64,000 bases of DNA, taken from NCBI GenBank assembly GCA_016184145.1, contig JACPDF010000023.1, positions 1,229 to 65,228 on the forward strand. Direction: 5' to 3'. The translations under genes were made by a program, and so were the position numbers. Positions 4,117 through 60,926 of this stretch are shown here, in pieces; within the stretch, counting starts at the first letter, position 1; each line of letters begins with the position of its first letter. Under the pieces are notes generated by a model. The model searched no databases and was not told the DNA's origin. It saw only the letters and a program-made list of their open reading frames with translations. The DNA comes from Candidatus Woesearchaeota archaeon (GTDB lineage: Archaea > Nanobdellota > Nanobdellia > Woesearchaeales > GW2011-AR4).

Positions 4117-4154
4117 TCGCATTTATTTTTCCTGATTTAAGAAGCGTATTCTGC

Positions 4155-9466: not shown

Positions 9467-9502
9467 AAACCAGTTTGATAGAATTGAGAAAAATCATTCC
9501 CG

Positions 9503-9666: not shown

Positions 9667-9716
9667 AAAATTAAACGGATTATGATTTTTAGAAAACTAA
9701 AATATTTATTTAAAAA

Positions 9717-10565: not shown

Positions 10566-10620
10566 AAAGCTACGAACGAGCGTAGCGAGTGAGTATGCTT
10601 TTTACAGGGTTTTGGAATGA
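10566..10620. repeat. mini-element (AAAGCTACGAAC...AGTGAGTATGCTTT) followed by a synonymous duplicate of the DUF58 gene's 3' end
   Basis: 10597-10620 re-encodes AFYRVLE* with 4 synonymous changes relative to 10542-10565; termini are shared with the 54519-54622 element. Confidence 0.55.
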
Positions 10621-11586
10621 CTATATCCATTCTTTTTTCTTGAAGTACACATAAGTTATAATTACAGAAGCCACCATTAACCCCAATGAAAAAAAATAGC
10701 CGTATTTCCAGTTAAGCTCCGGCATATTGAATATTGAGCTTGTATCAAAATTCATTCCATAAATTGACGCAATTAAGGTTGGAAATAAAACAAAAGATGC
10801 CCCTACTGTTAATGTCTTAATTGCTCTGTTCAGGTTGTTTGAAACAGCGCTCAAATAAATTTCCAATGTGCTGGTTAATATATCCCTATAAGTTCCAACC
10901 ATATCAATTAACTGCACAACATCGTTGTATAAAGTCCTGAAACGCTTTATATTTTTCTTGTCTATGTTGGCAACGTACTCCTTTTCTATAGATGCTATGA
11001 CATCCCTTGTGGCTGTAAGGGCTTTATGAAAAAATATGAGGGTTTTTTTAAGTGTAAAAATGCTATTCACTTTTACACTGCCTGGTTTTTCAATAATAAC
11101 ATCTTCCAAGTTGTCTATTTTTTCCTCCAAAGTGCTTAAAATTGAGAAATACGCATTAAAGACCTCGTCAAGGAGCCTGTAGGTAAAAAAGCTCATTGTA
11201 TGCTGTGCCATATCAATCTTTTTTGCCTCGATAAGCTGCATTATTTTATTAACGGAGCTTAGCTCTTTTAACGCGATTGTAATAACATTATTCTTGTTTT
11301 TGGAAATGAAAAGCGACAAAGGAGTTGTTGAAATTTCGTCATTCTCCACCCAAGGCGCCCTCACAACTATTAATGAATAATTGTCCAAATCAGAGACTTT
11401 CGGCCTTTCCTCTTCATCCAAAACCTCTTTTAGATCCTCCAAAGGGATGTTTGCTTTTTCAGATATCTCTATAAGCTCTTTTTCAGTTGGATTTATGCAG
11501 TGCGCCCAGCATTTTGTGGTTTCTGACAAGCCAACCAAAGAACCAAGCTTTACGCCTTCTTTCTGGAAATTATAGACATGAATCAT
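10621..11586 (-). CDS. corA: CorA-family Mg2+/Co2+ transporter
   Basis: YGMNF (GMN) motif followed by two C-terminal TM helices. Confidence 0.85.
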   Translation of the reverse strand: MIHVYNFQKEGVKLGSLVGLSETTKCWAHCINPTEKELIEISEKANIPLEDLKEVLDEEERPKVSDLDNYSLIVVRAPWVENDEISTTPLSLFISKNKNNVITIALKELSSVNKIMQLIEAKKIDMAQHTMSFFTYRLLDEVFNAYFSILSTLEEKIDNLEDVIIEKPGSVKVNSIFTLKKTLIFFHKALTATRDVIASIEKEYVANIDKKNIKRFRTLYNDVVQLIDMVGTYRDILTSTLEIYLSAVSNNLNRAIKTLTVGASFVLFPTLIASIYGMNFDTSSIFNMPELNWKYGYFFSLGLMVASVIITYVYFKKKEWI

Positions 11587-11682
11587 TCCAACTTGAGGTT
11601 AAGCTATATATATAAATTTTTTGCAGAATTATTTATGGTTTTCAGCAAAATGTATTTATACCTATTAAGTTAATTTGCCATT

Positions 11683-13452
11683 GTGAGGGTAAATAAAAAT
11701 CTGGCAATAGTATTTTTTTTGTTTGTTGTTGTCTTGATAAGCTATATCAATGTTTTCCGGAATGATTTTGCATGGGACGATAAATTCTTTATTGTGGATA
11801 ATACCCGCATAAGGGATTTGGGCAATATACCAAGTTTTTTTGCAGAACCGTCTCCAGGCAACTTGTACAGGCCTTTAAGGGAAGCATTTTACACTTTAAA
11901 TTACCAGCTATGGCAGCTTAATAAATTTGGCTACCACTTAAACAGCTTGCTGCTGCATTTTTTTGCTGCATTAATTTTGTTTTTTATAACGTTAAAAATA
12001 ACAAATAAGGCATTATTTTCTTTTGTTGCGTCATTATTTTTTGCTGCACATCCTATCCATACGGAAAGAATAACTAATATGACCGGAACTTTTGATGTTT
12101 TCGGCATTTTATTTTTCTTATTGTCGTTTTTATTTTATATAAATTATTCGAAAAAAGACAAAAAAAATTATTATTATTTTTCAATATTATTTTATTTATT
12201 GGCAATTTTCTCGACGGAGGAGGCAATAACATTAATTTTGATTTTATTTTTATATGAGTTCTCTTTCAATTACGAATTCAGCTTGGATAATATTAAATTA
12301 TTATCAAAAAAATACATCCCCTACATAATTGCAACAATTGTTTACCTGATGATCAGATTTTCTGTTGTGGGGCAGTTAGGCAGGACAGAAAGCTACTTTC
12401 AGCAGAGTTTTTTCGGAACTTTGCTGACGACAACAAAAATAATCGTTCTTTACATTGCAATGCTGTTTTTCCCTTCAAATTTAGTTATAGAAAGGTATGT
12501 AAAATTTGAAACATCTATTTTTAGTGCTGCTTTTCTGTTCTCGTTTATTATTTTATTATTGATAATTTTTTGCTTTATAAAATCCTATAAAAAATCAAAA
12601 ATCTTGTTTTTTTCAATAGGCTGGTTTTTCATAACATTGCTGCCGTTCACAAATTTATTTCCCCAGGTAACAATAATGGCAGAAAGGTACCTGTATTTGC
12701 CGTCTTTTGGTTTTGGCTTATTTTTAACAATTTTACTATTCCAGATAGATAAGGTAAAACAGATAAAAAAACACGGCAGAATTATAATAACTGTGTCAGC
12801 TATACTAATAACACTGTCTTATGCAGCTTTAACAATACAAAGGAATTCCGAATGGAGAGATAATTTTACATTACTAACAAAGGATGCTGAAAAAAATCCT
12901 TATGGCACAAGAATCCATCATGCAATTGCATTGCACTACAGAAATAATGGAGATTATGAGAATGCATTTAAATATGCATCAAGGGCAATTGAGCTAAGCA
13001 GCAAAAATTACAATGCATATGAAAATTTGGGGACAATCCTGGCGTATCAGAAAAAATATGACGAGGCTATAAAATTCTATAATAAGGCTCTTGAATTAAA
13101 CCCGAAATTTTATCTTGCAATGAATAATTTAGGCCTGGTCTATAGCTATATGGGTGATTCGAACACCTCTGTATATTACCTGAAAAAAGCAATAGAAATA
13201 GATCCAAAGCTGTCGAAGGCGTATAATGATTTAGGCACTGTTTACGCCCAGATGGGCGAATTTGATTCAGCAATAAAAGAAATGGAAAAGTCAATAGAAA
13301 TAAACCATTATAATGCTGACTATTATTATAATTTAGCTGTTATATATGAATATTTAAAAGATAAAGCGAAAGCGGCAGAACTCCTGGCAAAAGCATTGGA
13401 GATAGAGCCTGACAACAAAAAAATCAGGAATAAATTAGCAAGTATAAAATGA
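11683..13452 (+). CDS. GT-C-like multi-pass membrane protein with C-terminal TPR repeats (GTG start)
   Basis: about 12 TM helices, then TPR-type repeats (NAYENLGTILAYQKKYDEAIKFYNKALELNP...). Confidence 0.6.
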   Translation: MRVNKNLAIVFFLFVVVLISYINVFRNDFAWDDKFFIVDNTRIRDLGNIPSFFAEPSPGNLYRPLREAFYTLNYQLWQLNKFGYHLNSLLLHFFAALILFFITLKITNKALFSFVASLFFAAHPIHTERITNMTGTFDVFGILFFLLSFLFYINYSKKDKKNYYYFSILFYLLAIFSTEEAITLILILFLYEFSFNYEFSLDNIKLLSKKYIPYIIATIVYLMIRFSVVGQLGRTESYFQQSFFGTLLTTTKIIVLYIAMLFFPSNLVIERYVKFETSIFSAAFLFSFIILLLIIFCFIKSYKKSKILFFSIGWFFITLLPFTNLFPQVTIMAERYLYLPSFGFGLFLTILLFQIDKVKQIKKHGRIIITVSAILITLSYAALTIQRNSEWRDNFTLLTKDAEKNPYGTRIHHAIALHYRNNGDYENAFKYASRAIELSSKNYNAYENLGTILAYQKKYDEAIKFYNKALELNPKFYLAMNNLGLVYSYMGDSNTSVYYLKKAIEIDPKLSKAYNDLGTVYAQMGEFDSAIKEMEKSIEINHYNADYYYNLAVIYEYLKDKAKAAELLAKALEIEPDNKKIRNKLASIK

Positions 13453-15203: not shown

Positions 15204-15472
15204 GTCAAGTTATGTGTGTTGTTAAATTTTCAATCCACCTTCGGCCAATATAGTCGCTCGGCTCGCTCCCTTGCCATACGCTCGCCTCGCGGATTTATTT
15301 CTAATCAATTATGCTCTTTCGACACTTAACTTGAAATTGCCTAAGAAAAGCCAAAAGCTTAAATAGCACCTTGCCTATATCTTTCCTATAAGTTATCATT
15401 AAGTTATCATTAATATAGGCATAACTTATATAATGAAATATATATATTCTACAAAATAACTAAATCGCAACA

Positions 15473-15573
15473 TTTAAATAGGATTAATTTACTTATACTG
15501 CAGAGAAACTCATAATCATGAGAGTTTCCTATATAAACAACAAAAAAACAAACACAAGGAGGTGTTTAGTCAG
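15473..15573 (+). promoter_or_regulatory. putative promoter/RBS region of the S-layer-like gene
   Basis: TTTAAATA box at 15473-15480 and GGAGGTG at 15558-15564, 9 nt before the ATG at 15574. Confidence 0.3.
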
Positions 15574-18183
15574 ATGAGATTTAACAAAACGATAAAGAGA
15601 ATTTCTGCTCTAGGTTTAGGAGCATCAATGGTTGGTGCAACAATCTTCGGCGCAATGGCCGCTGATTTGTCAAACTATCCAAGCCAATACATTAAAGACG
15701 GCAAGTTTACAGGCGTCCTAGTTGTAGGAGACAGAGCTGCAGCAGAAGACGTTATCGGTGTTTCTGACATCGTAGCAAGTTTGCAGTTCGCAGCGACAAA
15801 GCCAGCTGGGGATGTAGCAAGCACACTAACAGCAGAAAATGCCTGGAAAGTCGGAAGCAGCACTAAGATTTTGGAATTAAGCGAAAATATTGCAACAGGC
15901 GATAGCAGAGAAACATTAAGAAACATCACACAATTTGTTGATGATGGTGACTTGAATGCTTTAGCATCTGGAACAGTTACAAATGGAAAAGGAGATGCAC
16001 CATATAACCAATATCTATATCTATTAGGGCCAGGAGGAGGAAATCAAGTAAATACGGGGTATGTTGTCTACACAGAAGATGATAATTCTGTTACAGATAC
16101 GTTCCTATATTTTAAGTCAGGAACTGAAATAGGAAGGTACTTGCTTGAGTTTACAACAGCTCTTGAGTCTGATGTCGATGACAGCGCTGGCGCTGCAACG
16201 ACAACGGGACTTTACCTTACAGATTTTGAGGATACTGACCTCGAGATGTTTGGAAAGAAATATTCTATTGTTACAGCTAGAAGGACATCTTCAACAACTA
16301 ACGGAGGCAAGAACATCAAATTAACTTTGATGGGCGGGGCAGTAAAAGACACACTAGTGGAAGGAAGCACAAAAACCTACACAATTGATGGCAAAGACTA
16401 TGAAGTTACAGTGGATTTCGTAGACTCAAACAGTGCTAAGCTTACCATTAACGGTGAAGCTACAAGAGACTTGCTTGAGGGAGAGACAGACAAGCTTTCT
16501 GACGGAACTACAATAGGAGTCTCAGAGATCCTGTATCAGGACTATGCAGGCGGTGTCCATAATGTGGAGTTTTTCTTGGGAGCCCAAAAAGTAGAGCTGC
16601 AAGATTCAGATGTATCGGATGTTGCATCATCACATGCCCTCAAAGTGGGTGATGATACAATTGATGACGCATTTGTGATTATTGAAGGTACAAATGACAA
16701 CAGTTCATTCAAGATAAGCAGGATACATGTAAACATGACAGCAGATGACGACTTTTATGTGCCAGTAGGAGGCAAATTAAGCGAGAATTCAGATTTGGAT
16801 GAGCCAGAGGTGATATTTACCAATAACTGGGACTTTGAGTACAAAGGATTAAGTGATGAGCTAACAGAAACAATCGAGATAGAAACAAGCGGCAACAAGA
16901 GATACAACCTGAAATTCAAAGACGGAGACGGTGAGGATGTAACACTTCCTTTAATAGAAGCAACAGCTGCTTCAGTGCTGGAGTTCGGAGAAAAAGACAA
17001 AGCATTGATTAATGTAGAAAACAAGACAATAGCCAAAGATGACTACCTCATCTTAACTGACAACTCTAAAAACCGAGGGGAAAGAAAGAGCTATGTACTC
17101 CAATATAAGGGAGCAGATAAATTATCTTCAGATAGCCATGTAGTGAAGTTCAAAAACCTAGGCAATGGTGAAACAATTGAGCAGAGCTATACAAACTCTA
17201 CCCCATTGGCAACCTTAAAGATAGGCGGTGCCGATTACAGAGTTTATGTAGCAGATACTGAAATGGCAGGTCTTCAAGCAAACGATTTTGGCGTTTGGGT
17301 TGATTTAGATTCAAGTGGAGGCTTGGTAAATAACGCCAGCACAAACATTACAACATGGTATGGAATGGAGATAGGGATACAAAACGCTTCAATGATTGGT
17401 GGTTTTTCTGACACCTCGAATGGTGTGATTGTGTCATTTAAAACTCCAGACAATACCAGAGATGGAGGAACTACCCAGGATAATGTAGAGACATTGCAGG
17501 CTACAGATTATGCTGTCAACCTGACATCTGACTCCAGTACGAAGGTAGCGCTTGCTGTACTGACAGGCTGGACAGGGGGACAAAAAGGAACAGCTCTTAG
17601 CGAAAAAACACCTGATGGTGAGACTAATGTGCAGTATACCTATACAAGCTATGGCGCAAAAATAACAAGGAATTCGCCATCAAGCGAGCCAGGAACGCTG
17701 AAAATAGATTATCCAGAGAAGCAAACAGAAGCTTTAGTTTACGTAACTGCTAAAGGAGCAACATTCAGCAGCGTAGCAGAAGGCGGAGCTGTAACAATCC
17801 AAAGGATTGATGTCGGAGCTACAAAATTAGCTTCAGAAGTTGCAAACATCAACAGTGTTAACTCAATCCTTGTTGGAGGGCCATGCGCTAACGCAGCAGC
17901 TGCAGAAGTCATGGGCAACCCAGCAGATTGCACAGCAGGATTTACACCTGGCGTAGGATTAGTCCAGGTCTGGGATGTTGGAACAGGCAATGTTGCCATG
18001 TTGGTAGCTGGTTATGCTGCAGCAGACACAAGAAATGCAGCAGCAGTAGTCTCTAATTACCAGGACTACAAGAGCCAGTTCAAGGGAGCTAAGGTAGAGG
18101 TAAAGAAAGTTGGTTCAACCTTGACTGTTGCTGAGCCAAGCACCGCTGCACCAGCAATGGAAGAAGAAACAACAACTGAATAA
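15574..18183 (+). CDS. secreted S-layer-like surface protein
   Basis: signal peptide MRFNKTIKRISALGLGASMVGATIFGAMA, T/S/D/G-rich, acidic C-terminus, strong RBS. Confidence 0.6.
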   Translation: MRFNKTIKRISALGLGASMVGATIFGAMAADLSNYPSQYIKDGKFTGVLVVGDRAAAEDVIGVSDIVASLQFAATKPAGDVASTLTAENAWKVGSSTKILELSENIATGDSRETLRNITQFVDDGDLNALASGTVTNGKGDAPYNQYLYLLGPGGGNQVNTGYVVYTEDDNSVTDTFLYFKSGTEIGRYLLEFTTALESDVDDSAGAATTTGLYLTDFEDTDLEMFGKKYSIVTARRTSSTTNGGKNIKLTLMGGAVKDTLVEGSTKTYTIDGKDYEVTVDFVDSNSAKLTINGEATRDLLEGETDKLSDGTTIGVSEILYQDYAGGVHNVEFFLGAQKVELQDSDVSDVASSHALKVGDDTIDDAFVIIEGTNDNSSFKISRIHVNMTADDDFYVPVGGKLSENSDLDEPEVIFTNNWDFEYKGLSDELTETIEIETSGNKRYNLKFKDGDGEDVTLPLIEATAASVLEFGEKDKALINVENKTIAKDDYLILTDNSKNRGERKSYVLQYKGADKLSSDSHVVKFKNLGNGETIEQSYTNSTPLATLKIGGADYRVYVADTEMAGLQANDFGVWVDLDSSGGLVNNASTNITTWYGMEIGIQNASMIGGFSDTSNGVIVSFKTPDNTRDGGTTQDNVETLQATDYAVNLTSDSSTKVALAVLTGWTGGQKGTALSEKTPDGETNVQYTYTSYGAKITRNSPSSEPGTLKIDYPEKQTEALVYVTAKGATFSSVAEGGAVTIQRIDVGATKLASEVANINSVNSILVGGPCANAAAAEVMGNPADCTAGFTPGVGLVQVWDVGTGNVAMLVAGYAAADTRNAAAVVSNYQDYKSQFKGAKVEVKKVGSTLTVAEPSTAAPAMEEETTTE

Positions 18184-26963: not shown

Positions 26964-27671
26964 TTGTTTTTCACAATCTTTAAAAATCAGCAGAAATTAT
27001 TTCAGGTTATGGACTTAAAAACGATAAAAAATAAGATACCAAAAGAGCTGTATAATATCCTTGAAAAAGAAATCAAGGCATTAAGGCCTGCCCAGACAAA
27101 AGCCGTGGAAAAAGGCCTTCTGGAAGGAAAAAATCTCCTTGTATGCACTCCTACAGCATCGGGAAAGACCTTGATAGCGGAATTAGCAGCATTAAAGTCC
27201 ATTTTGGAAGGCAGTGGAAAAGCCATATATATAGTCCCGTTAAAGGCGCTTGCATCCGAAAAATTCAGGGATTTTAAGCAAAGATACGGCCATTTGATTA
27301 AAGTTGCTTTGTCAATTGGGGATATAGATTCTGCAGATTCCTATCTGGTTGATTACGACCTTATCATTACAACATCAGAGAAATTAGATAGTTTAATAAG
27401 GCATCATGCTCCATGGCTAAGCCTGATATCAACAATAATTATAGACGAGATTCATTTATTAAATGACCCGGGAAGGGGCCCTACATTGGAAATATTAATC
27501 ACAATATTAAGGCAATTACTGAAAAAATCCCAAATCATAGGATTGTCAGCCACAATTGGGAATCCTGAAGAATTGGCAGAATGGCTAAAAGCAGAGCTGG
27601 TAATTGATGATTGGAGACCGGTAAAGCTGCAAAAAGGGATTTATTTGAATGGGGAGATTGAGTTTGAATAA
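26964..27671 (+). pseudogene. Hel308/Ski2-like DEAD/DEAH helicase, N-terminal RecA domain only (probable truncated remnant)
   Basis: Walker A CTPTASGKT and DEIH present, but the ORF stops after about 235 aa with no domain 2; the stop abuts the first 47-bp repeat of the hicBA cassette. Confidence 0.4.
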
Positions 27672-27781
27672 TTAAAGCCCCAGCCCCTCAACAACAAGCC
27701 TAGGCTCAAATTCCTTTAAGTACGAATGCTTTTGCCATTAAATACAAAAGTTTTAAAAACACCTTAATAATAGTATAGACT

Positions 27782-28045
27782 ATGGAAAAGAAATACTTTA
27801 TGGATATTGTGATTAATAAGGAAAAATTAAGCGATGGAAGTTCTGTTTTTGTAGCTCATTGCCTTACTTTGGGCATTGCCAGCCAAGGCAATGATATGGA
27901 CGAGGCTATGAAAAATATTAAAGAGGCCATTGAATTATACCTAGAAGAGCAACCAGAAAAATATGATATATTAAGCAACGAGCCCCCTTTATTTTCTGTT
28001 GTTGAGGTGACTAAGGGTGCCAAAGCTGCCAGTGTTATCAGGTAA
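27782..28045 (+). CDS. hicB: HicB-like antitoxin (UPF0150 fold)
   Basis: 87 aa, FVAHCLTLGIASQGNDMDEAMKNIKEAIELYLE; overlaps hicA. Confidence 0.55.
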   Translation: MEKKYFMDIVINKEKLSDGSSVFVAHCLTLGIASQGNDMDEAMKNIKEAIELYLEEQPEKYDILSNEPPLFSVVEVTKGAKAASVIR

Positions 28046-28244
28046 AGACATTATCAAAGTTCTTTCTAAAATAGGCTTTGAGCATGTGAGAACAAAAGGA
28101 AGCCATGCAATTTTAAATAAGCAAACAGAAAAAGGCAAGGTAACTGTGCCAGTTCCGTTGCATAAAGAGCTTGCAAAAGGGACATTAAAAAGTATAATGA
28201 AGCAAGCAGGATTAAGTTTAGAGGATCTTCTTAAATTATTATAA
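28017..28244 (+). CDS. hicA: HicA toxin (YcfA-like mRNA interferase)
   Basis: LSGKDIIKVLSKIGFEHVRTKGSHAIL signature, 75 aa. Confidence 0.7.
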   Translation: MPKLPVLSGKDIIKVLSKIGFEHVRTKGSHAILNKQTEKGKVTVPVPLHKELAKGTLKSIMKQAGLSLEDLLKLL

Positions 28245-29549
28245 CTAAAGCCCCAAGCTCTCAACAATAATCCTGGGCTCAAATTCCTTTAAATCCTTAT
28301 ATTCCTGGCCAACGCCCAAATACATTATCGGTTTTTTTGTTATGTAGCTTACAGAAATTGCTGCCCCTCCTTTCTCGTCGACATCGGCTTTTGCCAATAT
28401 TAAGCCGTCTATCCCTACAGCATCATTAAAGCTCTGGGCTTGCTCCACGCAGTCATTGCCGGTTATTGATTCCCCGACAAATACCTTTAAATCAGGCTTT
28501 GCAACTCTCATTATCTTCTTCATCTCTTCCATCAGGTTCTGCTGTGAATGCAGTCTTCCGGCTGTATCTATCAAAACAGCATCAGCATTCTTGGCTTTTG
28601 CATGCTTTATTGCATCGAAAGCTACAGCTGCTGGATCAGAGCCGTAATCATGCCTTATCATCTTCACCCCTAATTTGTCTGCATGCTGCTGCAATTGCTC
28701 AATTGAAGCTGCCCTGAAAGTATCGGAAGCTGCGAGGACAACAGAAAGCTTGTTCTGCTTCAGCATGTTTGCGACTTTTGCTATGCTCGTTGTCTTTCCA
28801 GAGCCGTTAATGCCAAAGAATGCAATAACAAACGGCTTTTCGCCTTTATTCTTGATACTTTTTATCAAATTTATTTTATCCACGTTGAATAAATCTTCTA
28901 TGGAGCTTCTTAATGACTCTTTTATTATCTCTTCAACCCTTGTCCTTTTGATGGGCTTCTCAACTAGATTTTTGGACAAGTCATTTTTTATTTTATCTAT
29001 CACTTCCATAGCAACATTATTTTCCATCAGTATCAGCTCAAGCTCGGAAAACAAACTCTCAAACTTCTCCCGGCTTATTTTTGTGGTTGTTATTTTTTCC
29101 GTTATTCTGCTAAAAAAGCCCTTCTTCTTCTCCAATGCCTGCTCTTTAATTTCCTCTTTTATTCCTGCCTGAGGAGCTTGCTCTTCAATAGCAACTTTTT
29201 TTACGTACTCTAATTCCCTTAGCTCTTCCTCAAGTATATTATCTTCTGCATGTTCTTCTTCAGCAGCTTTCTCTTCGCTTATTTTTTCTTTTATTGGCTC
29301 TGTTTTTTCTTTAATTTCCTTTGTTTTTTGAGTTTCCTTTTGAATTATTTTTTCCGTTTCTATTGGCTTTTCCTTGATTATTGGCTTTGTTTTTTCTTCA
29401 GTTTCTACCGTTTTTTCCTTTTTTATTTGCTCTATTGCTGGCTCTATTGGCTTTTCTTTTATTGGCTCCTCTGCCAGCTTTTCTTCTCCTATCTTCCTAG
29501 AAATCTTTGAGATAGCTCCTTTTAGCTTTTCTTTTAAAAATTTGAACAT
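28245..29549 (-). CDS. ftsY: signal recognition particle receptor FtsY
   Basis: FFGINGSGKTTSIAK, DTAGR motifs; repetitive charged N-terminal region. Confidence 0.9.
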   Translation of the reverse strand: MFKFLKEKLKGAISKISRKIGEEKLAEEPIKEKPIEPAIEQIKKEKTVETEEKTKPIIKEKPIETEKIIQKETQKTKEIKEKTEPIKEKISEEKAAEEEHAEDNILEEELRELEYVKKVAIEEQAPQAGIKEEIKEQALEKKKGFFSRITEKITTTKISREKFESLFSELELILMENNVAMEVIDKIKNDLSKNLVEKPIKRTRVEEIIKESLRSSIEDLFNVDKINLIKSIKNKGEKPFVIAFFGINGSGKTTSIAKVANMLKQNKLSVVLAASDTFRAASIEQLQQHADKLGVKMIRHDYGSDPAAVAFDAIKHAKAKNADAVLIDTAGRLHSQQNLMEEMKKIMRVAKPDLKVFVGESITGNDCVEQAQSFNDAVGIDGLILAKADVDEKGGAAISVSYITKKPIMYLGVGQEYKDLKEFEPRIIVESLGL

Positions 29550-32727: not shown

Positions 32728-32961
32728 TCAAATTCCTATACTCTAATTTTCACAATTATTTGTTATCTCATTATTTTATTGCAAATTTAATCTTTTAAGG
32801 CATTGAAATAAAAATGATATTTATCCTGCGTTTTTGCTATAATCCTTTTTAAAGGCAAAAACGCCGGGTTATATTTCATTTTTTATTTTATTGAATTTTG
32901 ATTTGTTTTGTCAATAATTATTATTGTCAATTTTGTTTATTGGAATTGTTTTTTCATTGGC
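32728..32961. repeat. intergenic repeat module family 1, copy 2; hairpin core 32825-32868
   Basis: CCTGCGTTTTTGC-N17-GGCAAAAACGCCGGG followed by a T-rich tract and ttattgg motifs. Confidence 0.55.
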
Positions 32962-37579: not shown

Positions 37580-40500
37580 ATGAAAAAACCACTGTTATTT
37601 TTAATAAGCTGTACTTTGTTTTTGTTATTCTCCACAATATCTGTTACTGCACTTTTTGGGAGGGTTGCCTATAATCAGACATTTCATGATATTTGCTTTA
37701 AGATTAATGATGATTATTATCACTTCCTAATTGACCACACCCAGGCAGACAGCTGGCCTTGTGGTGGCATTGATATAACAGACGATTCCATAAGGCTAGA
37801 GTGTATAAGTGATTTTGACGGGGCGTTTCAACACCAGTATGCACCATGTAGGGTAAGTGGAGGTCAATCTTGCGGAAGGTTTAGCTTCTATTCAAACCAG
37901 GCCTATGGAGTACATACAAATTCTGAAGAGCCTAGCTGGGATCCCACAGGACTTTTTGATGGCACTACAACCATAGATGGATATCCTTACTCACAGTACC
38001 TTACAGAAAGCTTCCAACGGGCAAACAGCCCTGTTCCGCATAGATTTTATTCTGATGGCAATTCCTGTCCCTCAGCTATAATTCAATCCACTAGCCCCAA
38101 CAACGATTCATTTACGCACCAAAGGGAGAATACAATAACGATCAACACGGATGCTGTTTCTGAATGCAGGTATTCAAATGATTCAGCTTCAAACTTCGCC
38201 AACATGATATATTTTCAGAGTACAAATTCAAATGCTCACACATTTAGCTTTAATGCAACAGAATTGATAAATTACAGCTTCTATGTAAAATGCAACACTA
38301 CGCTTGGAGACGTGAATAATGAGCATTATATTTTTAGAATTAGAACTGAAAATTTTGCCCCAATAATTGTAAGATCAATCGGAACTTTAACTACTTTGGT
38401 AAACCAGACCTTCATTTATCACGTGTGGGCCTATGATCCGGATGGTGACAAAATAAACGTCTCTGATGATACTGATTTATTTGACATAGATAGCACCACC
38501 GGGTTTATAAACTTCATACCTTTAACAAATGGTACATACAAAATAAATATCAGCGTAAAAGATGACAACACCATAAAATCGTTGAGTTCGTATGAAATTA
38601 TGATGTTGGTTGTTCTTAATGAAAATGATACTATTGCCCCCAATATATCAATTATAAGCCCTCTGAACGGCTCGACAGTAACTACAAACTTCACATGGAT
38701 TAACGCAACCACGAATGAAAGCGCGACATGCAGTTACAAGCTTGAATACGAATGCAGCGACTGCGAGCCTGCTTTTACACAGATGAATAATACAGGAGGG
38801 GCTATACATAAGCATTATATCGATAATCTGGAAAATAAAAGCTATAATCTCACTGTAAGTTGCAAGGATGTGGCATTGAACAAAAAAAATGTTACAATAT
38901 CTTTTAATGTTGCCTTTCCTCAGCCTGCCTCTAGTGAAGGCGGTGGAGGCGGTGGAGGTGGTATAGCAAACATATCAAACCCCTACAACCTGACAATAAC
39001 TGTAAATTCGCCAACAAACAATTCAATAATCAATTCCATTTCCGTAGATTTAGACATTTCAACGGATAGATATGCTGTATGCAGATATAGTTTGGATTCC
39101 GGCATATTTAATTCTTTGGATAGAACAGTCGTGGTAACAAGTGACGCATGGAAAGTTGGAACCTCTACAAAAATATTGGAGATAAGCGAAGACCTTCTAA
39201 TTGGAACAAACAGGGAAACTTTGAGAAACATCACAACCTTTATAGACGATTCAGAGCTAAATGCCTTGGCATCTGGCACAGTTTCAAACTCAAAAGGGGA
39301 TGCTCCATATAACCAATACCTATATCTATTAGGGCCGGGAGCAGCAGCTCAAGTAAATACAGGTTATGTCATCTACACAGAAGATGACAATGACGTGACA
39401 GCAGATTTCCTGTACTTCAAATCAGGAACTGAAATAGCAAGATACCTTTTGGAATTTACAACCTCTCTTGAATCGGATGTTGATGACAATACTGGAACAG
39501 CAACAACAACAGGCCTTTACTTAACGGATTTTGAAGATGTTGATATAACTATGTTTGGCAAAACATATACAATCGTACAAGCGCAAAGAGTAAATTCAAC
39601 TGGAAATAATGTCAAATTAATTTTGATTTCTGGAGCTATAAGAGACACACTAGTGGAAGGAAACACAAAAACATACACAACCGATGGAAAAGACTATGAA
39701 GTTACAGTAGACTACGTAGACTCGAACAGCGCTAAGTTCACAATAAACGGAGAAAGCACAAGAGATTTGCTTGATGGAGACACAGATAAAATATCAGATG
39801 GGACCACAATAGGTGTTTCAGAGATATTGTACCAAGATTATGCTGGCGGTATCCACACCGTAACATTCTTCTTGGGAGCACAGAAAGTGGAGTTAACAGA
39901 TACGAACATAAGAGATGTTGCATCTTCCAATAACCTAAAAATTGATGATGAAACAATAGACGATGCGTATACCATCATAGAGGGAAGTGACAACAACAGC
40001 ACATTTAAGATAGGCAGGATACACGTAAACATGACTGCAGACGATGACTTTTATGTGCCAGCAGGAGGCAAATTAAGCGAGAATCCTGATATGAGTGAGC
40101 CGCAAGTTCTGTTTACGCAAAATTGGGACATAGGGTATTGGGGCTTAACTGACGAACCAATAGAAACTATTGAAATCGCAACTAGCGGTCCTAGTAGATA
40201 CATATTGAAGTTTAAAGATGGAGACGGAAGCGAAGCAAGCCTGCCTTTGGCAGAAGCTGTCGGGGCTTCAACACTAGAATTTGGAGAAAAAAACAGGGCA
40301 TTAGTCAATAGAGAAAATCTGGTTATAACCAAAGATGATTATTTAATTCTCACAGACAGCAGCGAAGAAAGAGGAAAAAGAAAAACATACGCATTGCAGT
40401 ATAAAGGCGCTGATAAGATCACTGCAGACAGCCACGTATTGAAATTTAAGGATTTGGGTAATGGAGAGACAATAGAACAGACTTATACAGACGCCAGCCC

Positions 40501-42799
40501 CTTAGCAACTTTAAAGTTAGGCGGTGCAGATTTCAAAGTCTATAAAGCGCCTGGAGCAAGTATTTCTGCTAATGATTTTGACATACAAGTTGATTTAGAT
40601 GCGGATAGTATTTTAGAAACCTCAGGAGAGTTTATATCAATAACTACTTGGTATGGCGCAGAAATAAACATAACAAATGAAACTGCCAATAGGATAGACT
40701 TCGCTGTTAAAACACCAGATGATGATAGAGACAGCAATGCAGAAGATAATGTCGAGACTTTACAAGCCACAGATTTAACCGGTTATGTATATGTGAGTTC
40801 TGATTCTGTTAACATTCAAAGGACAGGAAATTTGAATTTCAGGACTCCAGGTGGGGAGACTAATGTAGCTTATGCTTATACAAGCTATGGGACGTTTATA
40901 ACCCACAATATGCCATCAGATGAGCCAGCGACATTGGTAATTGAATACCCTGAAAGACAGAGAGAAGCGCTTGTTTATATTACAACACCCCAGCAAACAG
41001 AAAATACCTACAAAAAAACGTTAAATAACTTGGCAGAGGGGCAGCATACAATCCTGATAAACTGCACAGATTCGTTAGGAAAGCCATATACAGAATTTCT
41101 TGGCTTCGACACCGGAAAATTAATAAAAGACCAAAGTTTACAAATCACATTTAATAGCCCAATTAATAACTCGATTTTTTATGGCGATTATGTCAATTTG
41201 GATGTGTCTACGAACAAATCTGCGAATTGTTTGTATAGCCTTGATTATGGTACATACAACAACTTAACCAATCCCTTAATAATAAATGAAACTACCTTAG
41301 TCGATGTTAATGTTTCAATATTTGATGTACTAGTGGAGGGGGAGACTAAAACTTATTCAATAGGCAATTATGATTATGAAGTTACATTAAATTTTGTAAG
41401 TCCTACTGAAGCACAGTTCACAGTTAATGGTGAAACGATATCAAAGCTGGAAAATGGATTTATTGATTACCTTATAGATGGAACCATAATTGGGGTTGAT
41501 GAGATTGTATATGAAGATTTTGCTGGAGGTTTGCACTACGCATATTTCTTTTTAGGGACGGAAATTAACAGTACAACAATACTTAACATTACAAATTTTA
41601 ACACTATTCATTCGATAAACTTGACAAATTTGGATGAGGGTGAACATAATATTAAAGTCAAATGTAACGATATTGATGACAATTACAATAGTGATTTTTT
41701 AAATTTTAAATTTTTTAATAATATTTGCGTGACGAAATGGGAATGCTTAAATTTCTTGTGCGGTTCCGATGAAAGAAAAAGGTGCAACCAAGTTTTTGAC
41801 TTGAATAACTGTTATTCTAAAACTAATCTAGAGAAAGATTTGTACAATGGTGATTATAAAGAGTTTGAAGAAGTGTGTGATTATAATAATGATCACCTAT
41901 TTGGCAATTTTACAAATATTTCCCATAATCTTAATAACCTTAGCTTTGTAATAGAAAATGAAAGTATAAAAATATCAGAAGGAAACGAAACAATATTATT
42001 CTTTAATTTCAGTTTTATTAATTTTGAATTAAATTTTTTCAATATAACAATTCAAAAACAAAATAATCTTTCAACAAAAGGCTCAATTTTCATCTCCGGA
42101 ATAGATCTAACCTCCCAGAATAAAACTAAAACAGTTTATATGGACAAAATAAGCGGCAATAGAGTGTGCATTAAAGACGAAGAAGTTCTTTCAATAAATC
42201 AAATAACGTCTGATTGTTCTAATTCAAGCGAAATTTCTTTGATATGTGATGGTGCAACAAGGAGTGATTACGCATGCACCGATTTAGGAAACAAATATAA
42301 AATAGAAGGATTAATACACTCAGGAGCAATAGAATATACTTTCAATCCTGCACCAGAACCATCCCCACCATCTGGAGGCGGAGGAGGTGGTGGCGGAGGC
42401 GGAGGAGGTGGTGGTGGAGGTTCTGGGCTGTCTTACACCTGCAACATGGACTGGAGCTGCTCAGACTGGTCTGCTTGCGAGGCAGGCTGGGAAACAAGGA
42501 AATGTGATTTTGTAAAAGTTGCGCAGCACACACAGAGTGAAGAGTGCCCATCAATAGATAGTGTACCTGCTATGGCAAGAAAATGCGAAGTAATTCAAGA
42601 GTTGGAAAAAGAGATTAAGGGGGCAGAGGAAAGTGTAAATGATACAGCCAAAACTGAAGAAAGTAAAAATCAAATAACAGGAATGGCTGTTTCTGAAGTT
42701 GAGGGAAAACCAAACTTATTGGTTGGTATAGTATCTTTGATTTTAATAGTAACTATGGGGATTTTCTTGTATTATCGCTTATTTTTCAGAAAGAAATAA
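37580..42799 (+). CDS. giant surface protein (1739 aa): signal peptide, Ig-like/beta-rich domains, embedded S-layer-paralog block, poly-Gly linkers, Cys-rich stalk, C-terminal TM anchor
   Basis: N-terminal signal; residues about 520-1140 are about 75% identical to the 15574-18183 product; GGGGGGGGG and SGGGGGGGGGGGGGGGGSG runs; C-terminal LLVGIVSLILIVTMGIFLYYRLFFRKK. Confidence 0.7.
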   Translation: MKKPLLFLISCTLFLLFSTISVTALFGRVAYNQTFHDICFKINDDYYHFLIDHTQADSWPCGGIDITDDSIRLECISDFDGAFQHQYAPCRVSGGQSCGRFSFYSNQAYGVHTNSEEPSWDPTGLFDGTTTIDGYPYSQYLTESFQRANSPVPHRFYSDGNSCPSAIIQSTSPNNDSFTHQRENTITINTDAVSECRYSNDSASNFANMIYFQSTNSNAHTFSFNATELINYSFYVKCNTTLGDVNNEHYIFRIRTENFAPIIVRSIGTLTTLVNQTFIYHVWAYDPDGDKINVSDDTDLFDIDSTTGFINFIPLTNGTYKINISVKDDNTIKSLSSYEIMMLVVLNENDTIAPNISIISPLNGSTVTTNFTWINATTNESATCSYKLEYECSDCEPAFTQMNNTGGAIHKHYIDNLENKSYNLTVSCKDVALNKKNVTISFNVAFPQPASSEGGGGGGGGIANISNPYNLTITVNSPTNNSIINSISVDLDISTDRYAVCRYSLDSGIFNSLDRTVVVTSDAWKVGTSTKILEISEDLLIGTNRETLRNITTFIDDSELNALASGTVSNSKGDAPYNQYLYLLGPGAAAQVNTGYVIYTEDDNDVTADFLYFKSGTEIARYLLEFTTSLESDVDDNTGTATTTGLYLTDFEDVDITMFGKTYTIVQAQRVNSTGNNVKLILISGAIRDTLVEGNTKTYTTDGKDYEVTVDYVDSNSAKFTINGESTRDLLDGDTDKISDGTTIGVSEILYQDYAGGIHTVTFFLGAQKVELTDTNIRDVASSNNLKIDDETIDDAYTIIEGSDNNSTFKIGRIHVNMTADDDFYVPAGGKLSENPDMSEPQVLFTQNWDIGYWGLTDEPIETIEIATSGPSRYILKFKDGDGSEASLPLAEAVGASTLEFGEKNRALVNRENLVITKDDYLILTDSSEERGKRKTYALQYKGADKITADSHVLKFKDLGNGETIEQTYTDASPLATLKLGGADFKVYKAPGASISANDFDIQVDLDADSILETSGEFISITTWYGAEINITNETANRIDFAVKTPDDDRDSNAEDNVETLQATDLTGYVYVSSDSVNIQRTGNLNFRTPGGETNVAYAYTSYGTFITHNMPSDEPATLVIEYPERQREALVYITTPQQTENTYKKTLNNLAEGQHTILINCTDSLGKPYTEFLGFDTGKLIKDQSLQITFNSPINNSIFYGDYVNLDVSTNKSANCLYSLDYGTYNNLTNPLIINETTLVDVNVSIFDVLVEGETKTYSIGNYDYEVTLNFVSPTEAQFTVNGETISKLENGFIDYLIDGTIIGVDEIVYEDFAGGLHYAYFFLGTEINSTTILNITNFNTIHSINLTNLDEGEHNIKVKCNDIDDNYNSDFLNFKFFNNICVTKWECLNFLCGSDERKRCNQVFDLNNCYSKTNLEKDLYNGDYKEFEEVCDYNNDHLFGNFTNISHNLNNLSFVIENESIKISEGNETILFFNFSFINFELNFFNITIQKQNNLSTKGSIFISGIDLTSQNKTKTVYMDKISGNRVCIKDEEVLSINQITSDCSNSSEISLICDGATRSDYACTDLGNKYKIEGLIHSGAIEYTFNPAPEPSPPSGGGGGGGGGGGGGGGGSGLSYTCNMDWSCSDWSACEAGWETRKCDFVKVAQHTQSEECPSIDSVPAMARKCEVIQELEKEIKGAEESVNDTAKTEESKNQITGMAVSEVEGKPNLLVGIVSLILIVTMGIFLYYRLFFRKK
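39144..40990. repeat. about 1.85-kb paralogous block shared with the S-layer-like gene (15838-17745)
   Basis: DNA stretches such as gatgc(a/t)ccatataaccaata(c/t)ctatatctattagggcc are identical; protein identity about 75% over about 640 aa. Confidence 0.7.
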
Positions 42800-47161: not shown

Positions 47162-47509
47162 TTTTCAAACCAAAATTATTTTTATTTGAATTTTTCCAAT
47201 AATAATCAGTTTCTATCCTATGATGCATAACTATTTGCTATGGTTTATTTAATTTCACTTTTGATATCATTCTTGCATTGAAAAATATTTAATCATAGCC
47301 TGCGTTTTTGCCATCCTGCTTTGCTAAGGCAAAAACGCCGGTTATTATTTTTTTGTTTTTATTGGCATTGTTTTATTGATTTATTTGTAAACTATTGGAT
47401 TTAATGCCTTAGTTGTGCACTTGTTTGCGAGCCTTATTGGCATTCCTTTTTTTATTGCAGCTTTGTTTTGATTATTTTTTGGATTATTCTTTCTGATTTT
47501 CATACTATT
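47162..47509. repeat. intergenic repeat module family 1, copy 3; hairpin core 47299-47341
   Basis: CCTGCGTTTTTGCC-N16-GGCAAAAACGCCGG plus extended homology to copy 1 (gtgcacttgtttgcgagccttattggcatt versus gagcacttgtttgtgaacttattggcatt). Confidence 0.6.
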
Positions 47510-58480: not shown

Positions 58481-59704
58481 ATGATCAAAGATTATTTTAT
58501 TTTCTCTGTTAAGAACCTCAGGAACAGAAAGCTGAGGTCATGGCTGACTATGATTGGCATAATCATTGGCATAACAGCAGTTGTTTCGCTCATAAGCATG
58601 GGGCAGGGATTAAAGACCGCAATAAGCCTGCAGTTTGGAGACCTGGGAACGGACAAACTTGCTGTCCAGGCTTCTGGCGGCTTTGGACCTCCTGGCACAG
58701 CGGTTGTAAATCCTCTAACAAAAGACAACCTTGAGGAAGTAAAGAAAGTAAGCGGCGTAAAAATAGCTGCTGGAAGATTGATAAAGCCGGGAAAAATAGA
58801 GCAGGATGATCATGCCACTTTTAGCTATGTTGCAAGCATGCCTGACAGGGAAGCAAGAAAGCTGATCCATGAAGCGCAGAATCTGGAAGCAGAATCCGGA
58901 AGATTGCTTAAGGATGGAGACAAGGGAAAGGTCGTGCTGGGAAGCAATCTTGGAAAAAAAGATGCGGGCCTGGGAAAGCAGGTTGTTGTCGGCTCTAAGA
59001 TAATTATCGAGGGCAAGGAATTTGAAGTGGTGGGCATATTAAAAAAACTGGGAAGCTTTATTCTTGACAATGTAGTCTTTATGAATGAGGATGATTTAAG
59101 GGATGTGATGGACGTTCCTGACAAGGATTATGATGTGATTGTGATACAGGTGCAGCAGAACGCAGATGTAGCTGCTGTCCAGCAACGAGTTGAGAAAGTA
59201 ATGAGGAATGAAAGGGGTGTAAAGGAAGGGGAAGAGGATTTTACTGTGCAAACCCCGCAGGCGATTCTTGGGCAGGTAACTTCAACTTTATTTGCTGTCC
59301 AGCTGTTTGTCTACATAATTGCAGGCATTTCAATAATTGTGGGAGGCATAGGCATAATGAACACCATGTTCACATCAGTTCTTGAAAGGACCAAGGAAAT
59401 AGGGATAATGAAATCAATAGGCGCAAGGAACAGCTCAGTATTTTCCCTGTTTTTTATAGAATCAGGATTAATTGGAAGCATTGGCGGAATTATTGGAGCA
59501 GTTTTTGGAGTTTTGATGGCGTTAGGGCTCGCATTCATTGGAAAATCCCTTTTAGGCACTGATCTTATAAGAGCAGAGATAAGCCCCTGGCTTGTGCTTG
59601 GCTCGGTTTTAGGCTCATTCATATTGGGGAGCTTATTTGGGATTTTGCCAGCTATAAAAGCTGCAAAATTAAATCCTGTTGACGCGCTGAGGTATGCAAA
59701 ATAA
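58481..59704 (+). CDS. ABC transporter permease, MacB/FtsX family
   Basis: N-terminal TM, periplasmic domain, C-terminal FtsX 3-TM bundle. Confidence 0.8.
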   Translation: MIKDYFIFSVKNLRNRKLRSWLTMIGIIIGITAVVSLISMGQGLKTAISLQFGDLGTDKLAVQASGGFGPPGTAVVNPLTKDNLEEVKKVSGVKIAAGRLIKPGKIEQDDHATFSYVASMPDREARKLIHEAQNLEAESGRLLKDGDKGKVVLGSNLGKKDAGLGKQVVVGSKIIIEGKEFEVVGILKKLGSFILDNVVFMNEDDLRDVMDVPDKDYDVIVIQVQQNADVAAVQQRVEKVMRNERGVKEGEEDFTVQTPQAILGQVTSTLFAVQLFVYIIAGISIIVGGIGIMNTMFTSVLERTKEIGIMKSIGARNSSVFSLFFIESGLIGSIGGIIGAVFGVLMALGLAFIGKSLLGTDLIRAEISPWLVLGSVLGSFILGSLFGILPAIKAAKLNPVDALRYAK

Positions 59705-60926
59705 AATGCTGCAAGATGTAATAATTTATGTCGTGAAGAGCATGAAAAACAGGATGATGAGAAGCATCCTTACCATAGTTTCCATACTCATAGGCATAAT
59801 GGCGATTTTTGCTTTAGTAAGCTTTGGCCAGGGTTTAAGTTCATATGTAAACCAAATTGGCCAAGAGGCGGGAGCAGACAAGCTCATAGCCCAGCCAAGG
59901 GGCTTTGGACCTCCAGGAACATCCAGTACTCCTCTGACAAAAGATGACTTGGATTTCATCAAGAAGGTAAAGGATGTTTCTGAAGCCAGTGGCGTGGTAA
60001 TGCAGCAAGCAGAAATTTCTTTAGATGTTGACAAGCCGGGAAAATGGGTTTTTGTCATGGGGATGTCTACTATACCTTCTGAGCAGAGGCTGATAGACGA
60101 GTCCTTTGGAGGCATTGATATACTAAAAGGCAGGAATCTCAAGAGCGGAGACAAAAATAAGGCTGTTATAGGATATAATTACCAGTTTGCTGACAAAATC
60201 TTTTCAAAGCCTTTGAAATTAGGGGATAAGATATTCGTAAACGATGTTGAGTTCAAGATAATAGGTTTTTATGAAGAGATTGGAAATTCGCAGGATGATT
60301 CCAACTTCTACATAACGATTAATGATGCGGAAGAGCTTTTCAGCAAGAAGGATGAATATGCCTTTATCTACATAAGGGCTGACAAGGGTGTAAATCCGTC
60401 AGAACTTGCTGCAAAGCTCGAAGAGAAATTAAGGAAAGAGAAAAACCAGAAAGAAGGTGAAGAGACATTTTTCATACAGACCTTTGAGCAATTGCTTGAG
60501 ACCTTTGGCACCATATTGCTCGTGCTCAATGCTGTTTTGGCGATTATTGCAGGAATTTCTGTCTTGGTTGCTGCCGTCAACATAACGAACACAATGTACA
60601 CTGCAGTTCTTGAAAGGACCAAGGAAATAGGGATAATGAAATCAATTGGCGCAAGGAACAGCACAATACTTTTTATATTTTTCATGGAATCAGGCGCTAT
60701 TGGGCTTATAGGGGGAGCTATCGGAATATTGCTTGGCTATGGGCTTGCAAAATTAGGTGGCCTTTTTGCGGCATCTGCTGGATTCGCCCTTTTGAAGCCC
60801 GCATTTCCATGGTGGCTCATTGTTGGCAGCCTTATGTTTTCTTTTGCTGTAGGAGCTGCTTCCGGTTTCCTGCCGGCAAGGGCAGCATCTAAGCTGAAGC
60901 CGGTTGATGCTTTGAGGTACGAATAA
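59694..60926 (+). CDS. ABC transporter permease, MacB/FtsX family (paralog)
   Basis: same architecture; a 55-nt tract identical to its neighbour encodes VLERTKEIGIMKSIGARNS. Confidence 0.8.
   Translation: MQNKMLQDVIIYVVKSMKNRMMRSILTIVSILIGIMAIFALVSFGQGLSSYVNQIGQEAGADKLIAQPRGFGPPGTSSTPLTKDDLDFIKKVKDVSEASGVVMQQAEISLDVDKPGKWVFVMGMSTIPSEQRLIDESFGGIDILKGRNLKSGDKNKAVIGYNYQFADKIFSKPLKLGDKIFVNDVEFKIIGFYEEIGNSQDDSNFYITINDAEELFSKKDEYAFIYIRADKGVNPSELAAKLEEKLRKEKNQKEGEETFFIQTFEQLLETFGTILLVLNAVLAIIAGISVLVAAVNITNTMYTAVLERTKEIGIMKSIGARNSTILFIFFMESGAIGLIGGAIGILLGYGLAKLGGLFAASAGFALLKPAFPWWLIVGSLMFSFAVGAASGFLPARAASKLKPVDALRYE

Follow-up and report, generated by a model that had tools for sequence, protein, structure and literature searches.

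A giant surface protein of a Woesearchaeota archaeon carries the central region of the S-layer protein, with evidence of recurrent gene conversion

Two questions about the S-layers of archaea are largely unanswered: how an accessory protein crosses the closed layer or becomes fixed in it, and how the unanchored S-layers of the Methanococcales type are held at the membrane. Such questions matter especially in DPANN archaea, which live by cell-to-cell contact. They are posed here by a stretch of 64,000 nucleotides (nt), hereafter the window, from a Candidatus Woesearchaeota archaeon (GCA_016184145.1, contig JACPDF010000023.1, positions 1,229-65,228). Two genes are our subject: the S-layer gene winA (open reading frame (ORF) 15574-18183) and winB (ORF 37580-42799), which encodes a giant surface protein of 1739 amino acids (aa). 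An earlier inspection of the letters alone (the sequence-only reading) had noted that a long part of the S-layer protein recurs inside the giant. Which part is it, how is it built into the giant, why does it still resemble the S-layer protein, and what could it do there? We found that winB holds exactly the central region of the S-layer protein and nothing of its anchor domain, and there is strong support for repeated overwriting of this region by the S-layer gene of the same genome.

The shared block is the central region of the S-layer protein

The features that define the shared block are listed below. Positions are those of the window, and aa positions of winA follow the 873-aa numbering (GTG start).

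15574..18183, + strand: canonical Woesearchaeota S-layer gene winA, with a signal-peptide-like N-terminus and no transmembrane (TM) anchor (PF05124 match, orthologues, ribosome-binding site (RBS), synteny)
15664..15783, + strand: N-terminal half of the split PF05124 domain (aa 35-74, profile positions 1-40)
15838..17763, + strand: shared block in the S-layer protein, 642 aa, all-beta, aa 93-734 (BLASTP, AlphaFold2 (AF2))
17791..18048, + strand: C-terminal half of the split PF05124 domain (aa 744-829, profile positions 87-172)
37580..42799, + strand: giant modular surface protein winB, 1739 aa, with an N-terminal signal/TM segment (aa 4-27) and a C-terminal TM anchor (ORF, hydrophobic segments)
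39143..40999, + strand: embedded S-layer block in the giant, aa 522-1140, Cys-free (BLASTP, codon alignment, Cys count)

By BLASTP, winA aa 93-734 matched winB aa 522-1140 with 66% identity over 645 columns (837 bits, E=0), and the long paralogous tract seen by the sequence-only reading in both ORFs was recovered at the same coordinates (15838-17763 versus 39143-40999). A second match joined winA aa 260-362 to winB aa 1246-1348 (44%, E 2e-22), which identifies the shorter internal repeat noticed near residue 1250 as a 103-aa sub-module of the block. The first estimate of about 75% identity was too high for the block as a whole, which is 66-69% identical as protein and 69% as DNA (in a global alignment of 616 codons, aa and nt are both 69% identical). 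Alignment by blastn gave 71.9% over 1470 nt, and only the best ungapped 300-nt stretches reach 76-78%. A T/S/D-rich low-complexity composition was rejected as the cause of the similarity, since the winB block retains 71 of the 72 columns that are >=95% conserved among 62 S-layer orthologues; the motifs GDAPYNQYLYLLGPG and IGVSEILYQDYAGG also occur in both proteins, as had been argued from the letters.

The protein encoded by winA was shown to be a Woesearchaeota member of the Methanococcales-type S-layer family. Its match to PF05124 (S_layer_C) scores 45.7 bits against a gathering cut-off of 23.9 (E 7e-12) and spans aa 35-829, with the domain built from an N- and a C-terminal segment around the central region. 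More than 479 orthologues of ~870 aa and 54-76% identity were found, nearly all with PF05124 (all but two fragments among the 120 listed), and the gene is present as one conserved copy per genome. A protein of a Candidatus Woesearchaeota MAG (P0001) is 100% identical to that of winA. Although the ORF list starts winA at the GTG at 15562 (873 aa), the ATG at 15574 (869 aa) is most likely the start, because AAGGAGGTG, a strong RBS, lies just 5' of it.

When spliced together, the PF05124 halves of winA align end to end with PDB entry 9FSA (residues 13-143, E 0.0057). This entry consists of aa 24-75 plus 484-576 of the Methanococcus voltae S-layer protein (SLP) and has been called a 'dimeric anchor'; the stretch between these two segments builds the hexagonal lattice in the published model (PMC11410804). 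By this analogy we infer that the split domain of winA may be an anchor or dimerisation domain. The shared block occupies everything between the two halves, and is presumably the central lattice-forming part of the S-layer protomer. In the AF2 model of winA (112-sequence alignment, mean predicted local distance difference test (pLDDT) score 83), small alpha/beta ends flank an all-beta region (aa 83-735) with low-confidence linkers at both of its ends. According to a preprint (bioRxiv 10.1101/2024.05.28.596244), the S-layer proteins of Nanoarchaeota are lattice proteins of the beta-sandwich type and have their orthologues in class I methanogens. S-layer genes rank among the top-expressed genes of Woesearchaeota (PMC11606122).

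The block itself gave no Pfam or NCBIfam match, including PF05123 and PF07752, and no PDB match by sequence or profile. A Foldseek search of the winA model against the PDB returned only beta-propeller noise with low template-modelling scores. The central region is thus recognised neither by sequence nor by fold as PF05123 (S_layer_N) or as like the Methanosarcina S-layer tile protein (MSTP), and winA is an ordinary PF05124-type family member whose central region has no family model. A block of ~640 aa is therefore without a Pfam model, though it belongs to proteins that are among the most conserved and probably the most abundant of Woesearchaeota.

The S-layer gene was also compared with that of a related genome, GCA_016180235.1 (loci L004/L057 of the scan described below). 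Housekeeping proteins of the window and of this genome are 75-90% identical, whereas their S-layer blocks fall into different clades; the counterpart of winA is not among the top 120 winA matches (all >=54%) and is ~49% identical at block level. Because of this disparity, the S-layer gene is taken to diverge, or to be replaced, much faster than the genome background.

The block is embedded in an Ig-like domain of an anchored giant

Relatives of winB were collected by protein search (P0121, P0122 and P0123), and GTDB species representatives (one genome per species) were scanned for the block, which gave 79 block-bearing loci (labelled L0xx). The remaining parts of winB are as follows.

37661..38359, + strand: Cys-containing N-terminal 'head', ~aa 28-260 (shared with P0121, P0123, L061 and L062)
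38612..38935, + strand: unsplit copy of an immunoglobulin (Ig)-like 'host' domain, aa 345-452 (the spliced halves align to it)
38939..38962, + strand: poly-Gly linker 1, 8 G
38963..39142, + strand: N-terminal half of the block-interrupted Ig-like host domain, aa 462-521 (motif, splice alignment)
41000..41137, + strand: C-terminal half of the block-interrupted Ig-like host domain, aa 1141-1186 (motif, splice alignment)
41138..41734, + strand: second Ig-like host domain, aa 1187-1385, enclosing one beta-sandwich sub-module of the block (aa 1246-1348, nt 41315-41623)
41717..42796, + strand: generic C-terminal stalk and anchor module, aa 1380-1739 (profile matches in representative proteins)
42428..42589, + strand: thrombospondin-type-1-repeat (TSR)-like CxxWxCxxWxxC module, aa 1617-1670, YTCNMDWSCSDWSACEAGWETRKC, just outside the membrane anchor

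The chain accordingly runs from the signal peptide through the Cys head, Ig-like domains, the block-carrying and the sub-module-carrying Ig-like domain to the Cys-rich stalk, poly-Gly linker, TSR-like module and TM helix. Directly 5' of the block stands ...NSPTNNSIINSISVDLDISTDRYAVCRYSLDSGIF..., and directly after it ...YKKTLNNLAEGQHTILINCTDSLGKPYTEFLGF. When the block is removed in silico, the spliced host halves align to the unsplit copy (E 1e-10 and 2e-06), and the two interrupted, spliced host domains of winB align with each other (E 3e-19). Because the spliced flanks align to an uninterrupted Ig-like copy, the block is a nested domain, inserted into a loop of the Ig-like one. These junctions recur elsewhere: SP.NNS...C.YSLDS right before and L.NL..G.H...C.D right after the block, or tandem blocks, of 12 giants from different genomes. 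A hidden Markov model of the host domain likewise found N-halves just before and C-halves just after the block in P0121, P0122 and P0123, together with unsplit copies, while the second insertion, that of the sub-module, is absent from these three.

No PF05124 match was found in winB, whether the whole protein or its N- and C-terminal parts were scanned. These parts had no match in Pfam or NCBIfam at all, the head included. By this measure winB is not a PF05124-type S-layer protein but a carrier of the central region only, and all 33 of its Cys residues lie outside the block. The head is 40-54% identical to the heads of other giants; an AF2 model of the N-terminal 344 aa from a 3-sequence alignment was unusable (pLDDT 36).

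The C-terminal module consists, in order, of a Cys-rich segment, a beta-rich domain, a 16-Gly linker (nt 42374-42421), the TSR-like module, an acidic linker, the TM helix (aa 1710-1736, nt 42707-42787) and an RKK tail, so that ~330 aa of Cys-rich, beta, poly-Gly and acidic segments precede the helix. The poly-Gly linkers, Cys-rich flanks and C-terminal anchor described by the sequence-only reading are all present, the linkers with 8 and 16 G. Its 'Cys-rich stalk' with TM anchor, however, is a generic module rather than a peculiarity of winB: it was found in 1657 representative proteins at E<=1e-3 and forms the C-terminus of proteins of 136-3084 aa, with a terminal hydrophobic helix in 110 of 148 and the block in only 12 of 148. 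It is common to the giants L021, L023, L044, L048, L061, L062, L073 and L082. A C..W..C..W..C-like motif occurs within the last 200 aa of 80 of the 148 representatives with this anchor. For the TSR-like module of winB, a PDB search gave a weak match to a spondin TSR (E 0.003); other PDB matches of winB by sequence were rejected as artefacts of the poly-Gly linkers. With a central region that lacks PF05124 and a TM anchor of its own, the anatomy fits the earlier description of a major S-layer protein plus a tethered giant variant.

Block fusions recur in Woesearchaeota

At least 12 further block fusions were found in Woesearchaeota. Fusions of 750 to 4628 aa account for 12-13 of the 79 block-bearing loci (L021, L023, L025, L031, L044, L048, L052, L059, L061, L062, L073, L076 and L082), some with two or three tandem blocks, and nine assemblies hold both a canonical S-layer gene and a giant. 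A search with the whole giant returned only 8 matches and no self-match, probably swamped by poly-Gly and low-complexity words. P0122 (GCA_016180235.1, on a 132-kb contig) is a positional orthologue of winB in the same order ABC1-YdjM-giant-amino-acid-kinase; the flanking proteins are 75-90% identical, whereas the blocks are only 54% identical. P0123 was found on three contigs from three samples.

Several fusions differ in detail. The 4628-aa protein of L021 (JACPJQ010000006.1, 1037-14920) contains two full block copies and two partial segments, and in L044, L073, L025 and L052 tandem blocks stand head to tail within a single host domain. The block directly follows the signal peptide in L082 and a Cys-rich domain in L059, while L076 and the third copy in L021 lie in a different host domain; the fusions L082, L059 and L076 may be independent in origin. 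P0123 (L001, gene 10001-16543, 2180 aa) has an uninterrupted PF05124-like domain at ~aa 700-870, weak and below the cut-off (20.4 bits). Because this domain stands elsewhere in the chain, the anchor domain seems separable from the block, and may exist unsplit and apart from it.

Giants follow the S-layer gene of their own genome

Trees of the block were built by neighbour-joining on simple distances from two data sets of 123 and 73 sequences. In both, the giants were monophyletic in 0 of 100 bootstraps, on which ground a single ancient duplication without exchange was rejected, and giant blocks were placed in the sub-clade of the S-layer of their own genome. As shown below, the own S-layer ranked 1-5 of 62 for the giant's block in all eight genomes; P0097 and P0123 were paired by co-occurrence in the same three metagenome assemblies.

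Giant L023, own S-layer L028: rank 1 of 62
Giant P0123, own S-layer P0097: rank 1 of 62
Giant L044, own S-layer L043: rank 1 of 62
Giant L082, own S-layer L068: rank 1 of 62
Giant winB (window), own S-layer winA: rank 2 of 62
Giant L062, own S-layer L037: rank 2 of 62
Giant L048, own S-layer L057: rank 4 of 62
Giant L021, own S-layer L078: rank 5 of 62

Besides this affinity within genomes, discrete tracts of high identity were observed in relatives of the window. L082 is 75% identical to its own S-layer L068 but <=45% to every other giant, and the trees unite L082 and L068 as sisters with 100% bootstrap; they are ~90% identical across ~1.3 kb and then ~50%. L044 and L043, sisters at 74% bootstrap, share exact runs of 100, 60 and 32 nt over a background of 75% (estimated chance probability ~1e-9). 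P0123 and P0097 are ~95% identical over the last 150 nt, at the 3' end. Since the nested architecture is conserved while the blocks are polyphyletic and resemble those of the own genome, conversion of an old gene is indicated rather than many captures. It is thus strongly supported that the giants are an old Woesearchaeales gene family in which gene conversion from the resident S-layer gene has time and again replaced the block, wholly or partly, and hence that each giant tracks the S-layer of its own genome. As evolutionary history, the gene conversion proposed by the sequence-only reading is therefore supported, on the polyphyly of the giants, their affinity to the own genome in 8/8 cases, the fresh tracts in relatives and the mosaic in the window described next. 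With tracts that run from fresh (100 nt exact) to eroded (the window), the family provides a clean natural case in which a structural gene and a domain lodged in a second gene evolve in concert.

The window pair records an old and partial exchange

In the window itself, synonymous sites of the block are saturated (proportion of synonymous differences (pS) 0.70, synonymous divergence dS ~2), while the nonsynonymous divergence dN is 0.23 (dN/dS ~0.12). The longest exact run shared by winA and winB is 22 nt, with an estimated chance probability of ~0.16 at the given identity. Along the block, pS varies from 0.36 to 1.0, with dips to 0.36-0.46 in parts of the 5' 60%. The trees join winB to the giant P0121 (86-95% bootstrap), next to the clade that includes winA and not within it. 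The winB block is a mosaic, S-layer-like in its 5' 40% and nearer to P0121 than to winA in its 3' third: aa 1-250 are 72-86% identical to winA versus 62-78% to P0121, while aa 451-619 are 46-54% identical to winA versus 72-76% to P0121. Because of this mosaic and the dips of pS in the 5' part, the pair fits concerted evolution in which the last exchange would have been old and partial.

The block of winB is as constrained as that of the S-layer protein itself, because it keeps 71 of the 72 conserved columns, its mean identity to other S-layers equals that of winA (0.542 versus 0.538), and dN/dS is ~0.12. The two tracts are direct repeats 21 kb apart, and the genes for GINS, aIF2-alpha, enolase, fibrillarin and Nop lie in between.

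Comparison with known surface-layer systems

The closest known relatives of winA are the Methanococcales/Thermococcales-type SLPs (PF05123/PF05124; M. voltae, 9FSA, SymProFold, PMC11410804), with which it shares a signal peptide, a split PF05124 domain and a long beta-rich middle. Its middle is ~640 aa long against ~400 aa in M. voltae and has no match to PF05123 or another family, and winB differs further in having the central region without PF05124.

In Methanosarcina, the major S-layer tile domain (DUF1608/MSTP) is reportedly found in other surface proteins too. The likeness to these MSTP sets is that a presumed lattice domain recurs in additional, larger surface proteins of the same genome. 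Unlike DUF1608, however, to which neither sequence nor Foldseek gave a match, the Woesearchaeota module is nested in an Ig-like domain and evolves in concert with the S-layer gene; to our knowledge, neither has been described for MSTP paralogues.

In Sulfolobales, the lattice protein SlaA is accompanied by the membrane-anchored stalk protein SlaB, and the slaAB genes are adjacent and, as far as is known, universal in the order. Like SlaB, winB is a TM-anchored stalk protein alongside an unanchored lattice protein, with a C-terminal TM helix and an extended stalk. SlaB, however, is not known to hold a copy of the lattice region of SlaA, and the Woesearchaeota genes are neither co-operonic nor universal, lying 21 kb apart in the window, while most genomes have no giant (giants make up 12-13 of 79 block loci).

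The sap genes of Campylobacter fetus have near-identical tracts and recombine frequently around one promoter. Here, too, several genes share long homologous tracts and recombination shapes the surface layer, but the tracts of the window are only 69% identical, the genes are independently expressed units, and exchange is seen only on evolutionary time scales. Accessory proteins of Clostridioides difficile (cell wall proteins with CWB2 modules) and Bacillus anthracis (BSLs with SLH modules) share a wall-anchoring module with the SLP. As in these families, the accessory protein would be integrated by a module shared with the S-layer protein; in contrast to them, Woesearchaeota share the presumed lattice part and not the anchoring domain. 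Giant surface proteins of DPANN archaea, for example the SPEARE proteins of Nanohaloarchaeota, are very large and modular. While winB resembles them as a very large modular secreted or anchored protein with Ig-like repeats in an episymbiont with a small genome, no protease, nuclease or lectin domains are detectable in it, and it is the embedded S-layer module that defines winB. None of the systems compared unites all three features of the giants, namely the nesting of a lattice module, the excision of the anchor domain and evolution in concert with the S-layer gene of the same genome, and our literature searches found no description of this combination.

Proposed function and alternative explanations

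Our favoured overall reading, to which we give a little more than even credence, is that an anchored giant holds the central S-layer region, kept similar by conversion, and joins the lattice as a membrane-tethered subunit. Since the block keeps the conserved positions of the S-layer protein and evolves at the same rate, it would probably make the same lattice contacts. winB could then take the position of a protomer in the S-layer sheet, or dock to the sheet, with its stalk and TM helix standing in for the soluble anchor domain. In this way it might tether the lattice to the membrane, or plant the head and Ig-like domains at the envelope, while conversion together with selection would preserve its fit with a diverging S-layer. 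The simplest reading of the sequences is a substoichiometric, membrane-tethered 'protomer mimic'. More tentatively, as a possibility short of probable, we suggest that Woesearchaeota in general insert large tethered proteins by means of an Ig-nested copy of the lattice region that recurrent conversion keeps fit for assembly. If true, such protomer mimicry would be a general and previously undescribed way to functionalise or anchor an archaeal S-layer, and could bear on the attachment of DPANN archaea to their hosts. A TM-anchored family that carries the S-layer central region is in any case a concrete, testable candidate for both problems posed at the outset.

Several points weigh against a tethered lattice subunit. 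That the block forms the lattice, and that winB enters it, are steps that we infer; the term 'lattice-forming' draws on the analogy with M. voltae and on a preprint, and no likeness of the block to PF05123, PF07752 or a PDB entry could be detected. If its termini face the membrane as they do in M. voltae, the N-terminal 460 aa of winB would start beneath the lattice, which is awkward for an outward-facing adhesin. Only ~15% of block-bearing loci are giants, so that winB-like proteins are no universal anchor. winA and winB are not sisters (0/100) and share no fresh tract. The trees are neighbour-joining on simple distances, without maximum likelihood, and contigs of metagenome-assembled genomes (MAGs) were taken to represent single genomes.

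The main rival to a lattice subunit is a lattice-independent paralogue, whose block would be a reused beta-sandwich array serving as spacer, ligand surface or decoy for viruses or partners, with conversion following from mere similarity. We consider this unlikely, though it deserves serious weight: the place of winB in the lattice is a proposal, most genomes have no giant, the same C-terminal anchor bears many unrelated passengers (with the block in only 12/148 representatives), and the tandem blocks of L021, L044 and L073 together with the isolated sub-module (aa 1246-1348) look like uses of a generic building block. Yet the winB block is as constrained as the S-layer by conserved columns, mean divergence and dN/dS, and the part held in common takes in the central region exactly and in full, leaving out the anchor domain. 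Tracking of the own genome in 8/8 cases extends even to pairs only 58-69% identical; as passive conversion should have ceased at such identity, this suggests that selection helps to maintain the similarity. Repeated independent capture, in which each lineage duplicated the central region of its own S-layer gene into a surface-protein gene, would make similarity within a genome the mark of several recent origins instead of the conversion of one old gene, and would account for the deviating contexts of L082, L059, L076 and the third L021 copy, as well as for a window synteny shared by P0122 only. Such captures are nevertheless improbable, for 12 giants with blocks from different S-layer clades carry them in one and the same loop of a common Ig-like host domain and share the C-terminal module, winB and P0122 are positional orthologues whose blocks fall into different clades, and mosaics within genes and short exact tracts are signatures of conversion and not of whole-block duplication.

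The sequence-only reading had gone further, and proposed that the two window tracts are present-day recombination substrates of an exchangeable surface layer. Such active variation, in which the tracts recombine in living populations and swap or mosaic the S-layer like silent cassettes, could appeal to paralogous tracts on the same strand and to the evolutionary conversion documented in the family. A present-day switch was nonetheless rejected, since 69% nt identity, a pS of 0.70 and exact runs of at most 22 nt leave no near-identical tracts of the sap kind; the idea is very improbable as a whole. Each ORF is complete, has a start and an export signal of its own and is under purifying selection; no invertible element or promoterless cassette was seen. 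An exchangeable-cassette system is likewise not supported: because the repeats are direct, crossing-over would delete the intervening 21 kb with GINS, aIF2-alpha, enolase and fibrillarin/Nop genes. An assembly or binning artefact that produced a chimeric giant ORF might be suspected because the window comes from a MAG and the protein search gave no identical giant. Its probability is negligible, as the architecture turns up again in independent samples and assemblies (three contigs, from three samples, for P0123, and the 132-kb contig with the same synteny for P0122) and the reading frame of winB is unbroken across all junctions; an assembly chimera was rejected on these grounds.

Neighbouring genes and other elements of the window

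The gene content of the window is archaeal (Gins51, fibrillarin/Nop, aIF2-alpha, SecDF). The neighbourhood of the S-layer gene is conserved, with a radical SAM gene at 41 of 53 loci, Gins51 at 37 of 53 and a homologue of the following upstream gene at 36 of 53.

11683..13452, + strand: membrane protein with C-terminal tetratricopeptide repeats (TPR), 589 aa, upstream of the S-layer gene (TPR models only)

The sequence-only reading put forward the TPR/GT-C and YfhO-like membrane proteins upstream as candidates for a cognate glycosylation machinery. Family models matched the 589-aa protein by its TPR only, and a second upstream membrane protein of 584 aa had no match in Pfam or NCBIfam. Farther upstream of the S-layer region, at 2248-10565, lies a Bat/MoxR-type cluster (BatA-VWA-DUF7408, a VWA protein, DUF7502, a MoxR AAA+ ATPase and DUF58), partly syntenic in the relative L011. 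Scans of the 64-kb window for tRNA genes and Rfam families gave no tRNA gene and no Rfam family at the gathering threshold.

Three intergenic hairpins on the + strand (6752-6788, 32828-32864 and 47302-47338) share the same 10-bp stem GCGTTTTTGC ... GCAAAAACGC, with varying loops, additional flanking pairs and a T-rich tract downstream. None was expected by chance (0/100 shuffles), and the folding z-scores on the + strand range from -2.2 to -4.1. All three are on the + strand, though two of them sit between minus-strand genes. They could be a conserved terminator-like or protein-binding element.

Direct repeats of 52 nt and 87% identity (27668-27719 and 28241-28292) bracket a two-gene cassette (ORFs 27782-28045 and 28017-28244) that, judged by eye from the sequence, resembles a HicB/HicA antitoxin/toxin pair. 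The cassette adjoins a 235-aa ORF (26964-27671) resembling the N-terminal part of a DEAD/DEAH-box helicase, which suggests that a toxin-antitoxin insertion may have disrupted or truncated a helicase gene. Finally, the adjacent, overlapping ORFs 58481-59704 (407 aa) and 59694-60926 (410 aa) share a 194-nt tract of 75% identity (59315-59508 / 60543-60736) and are tandem paralogues.

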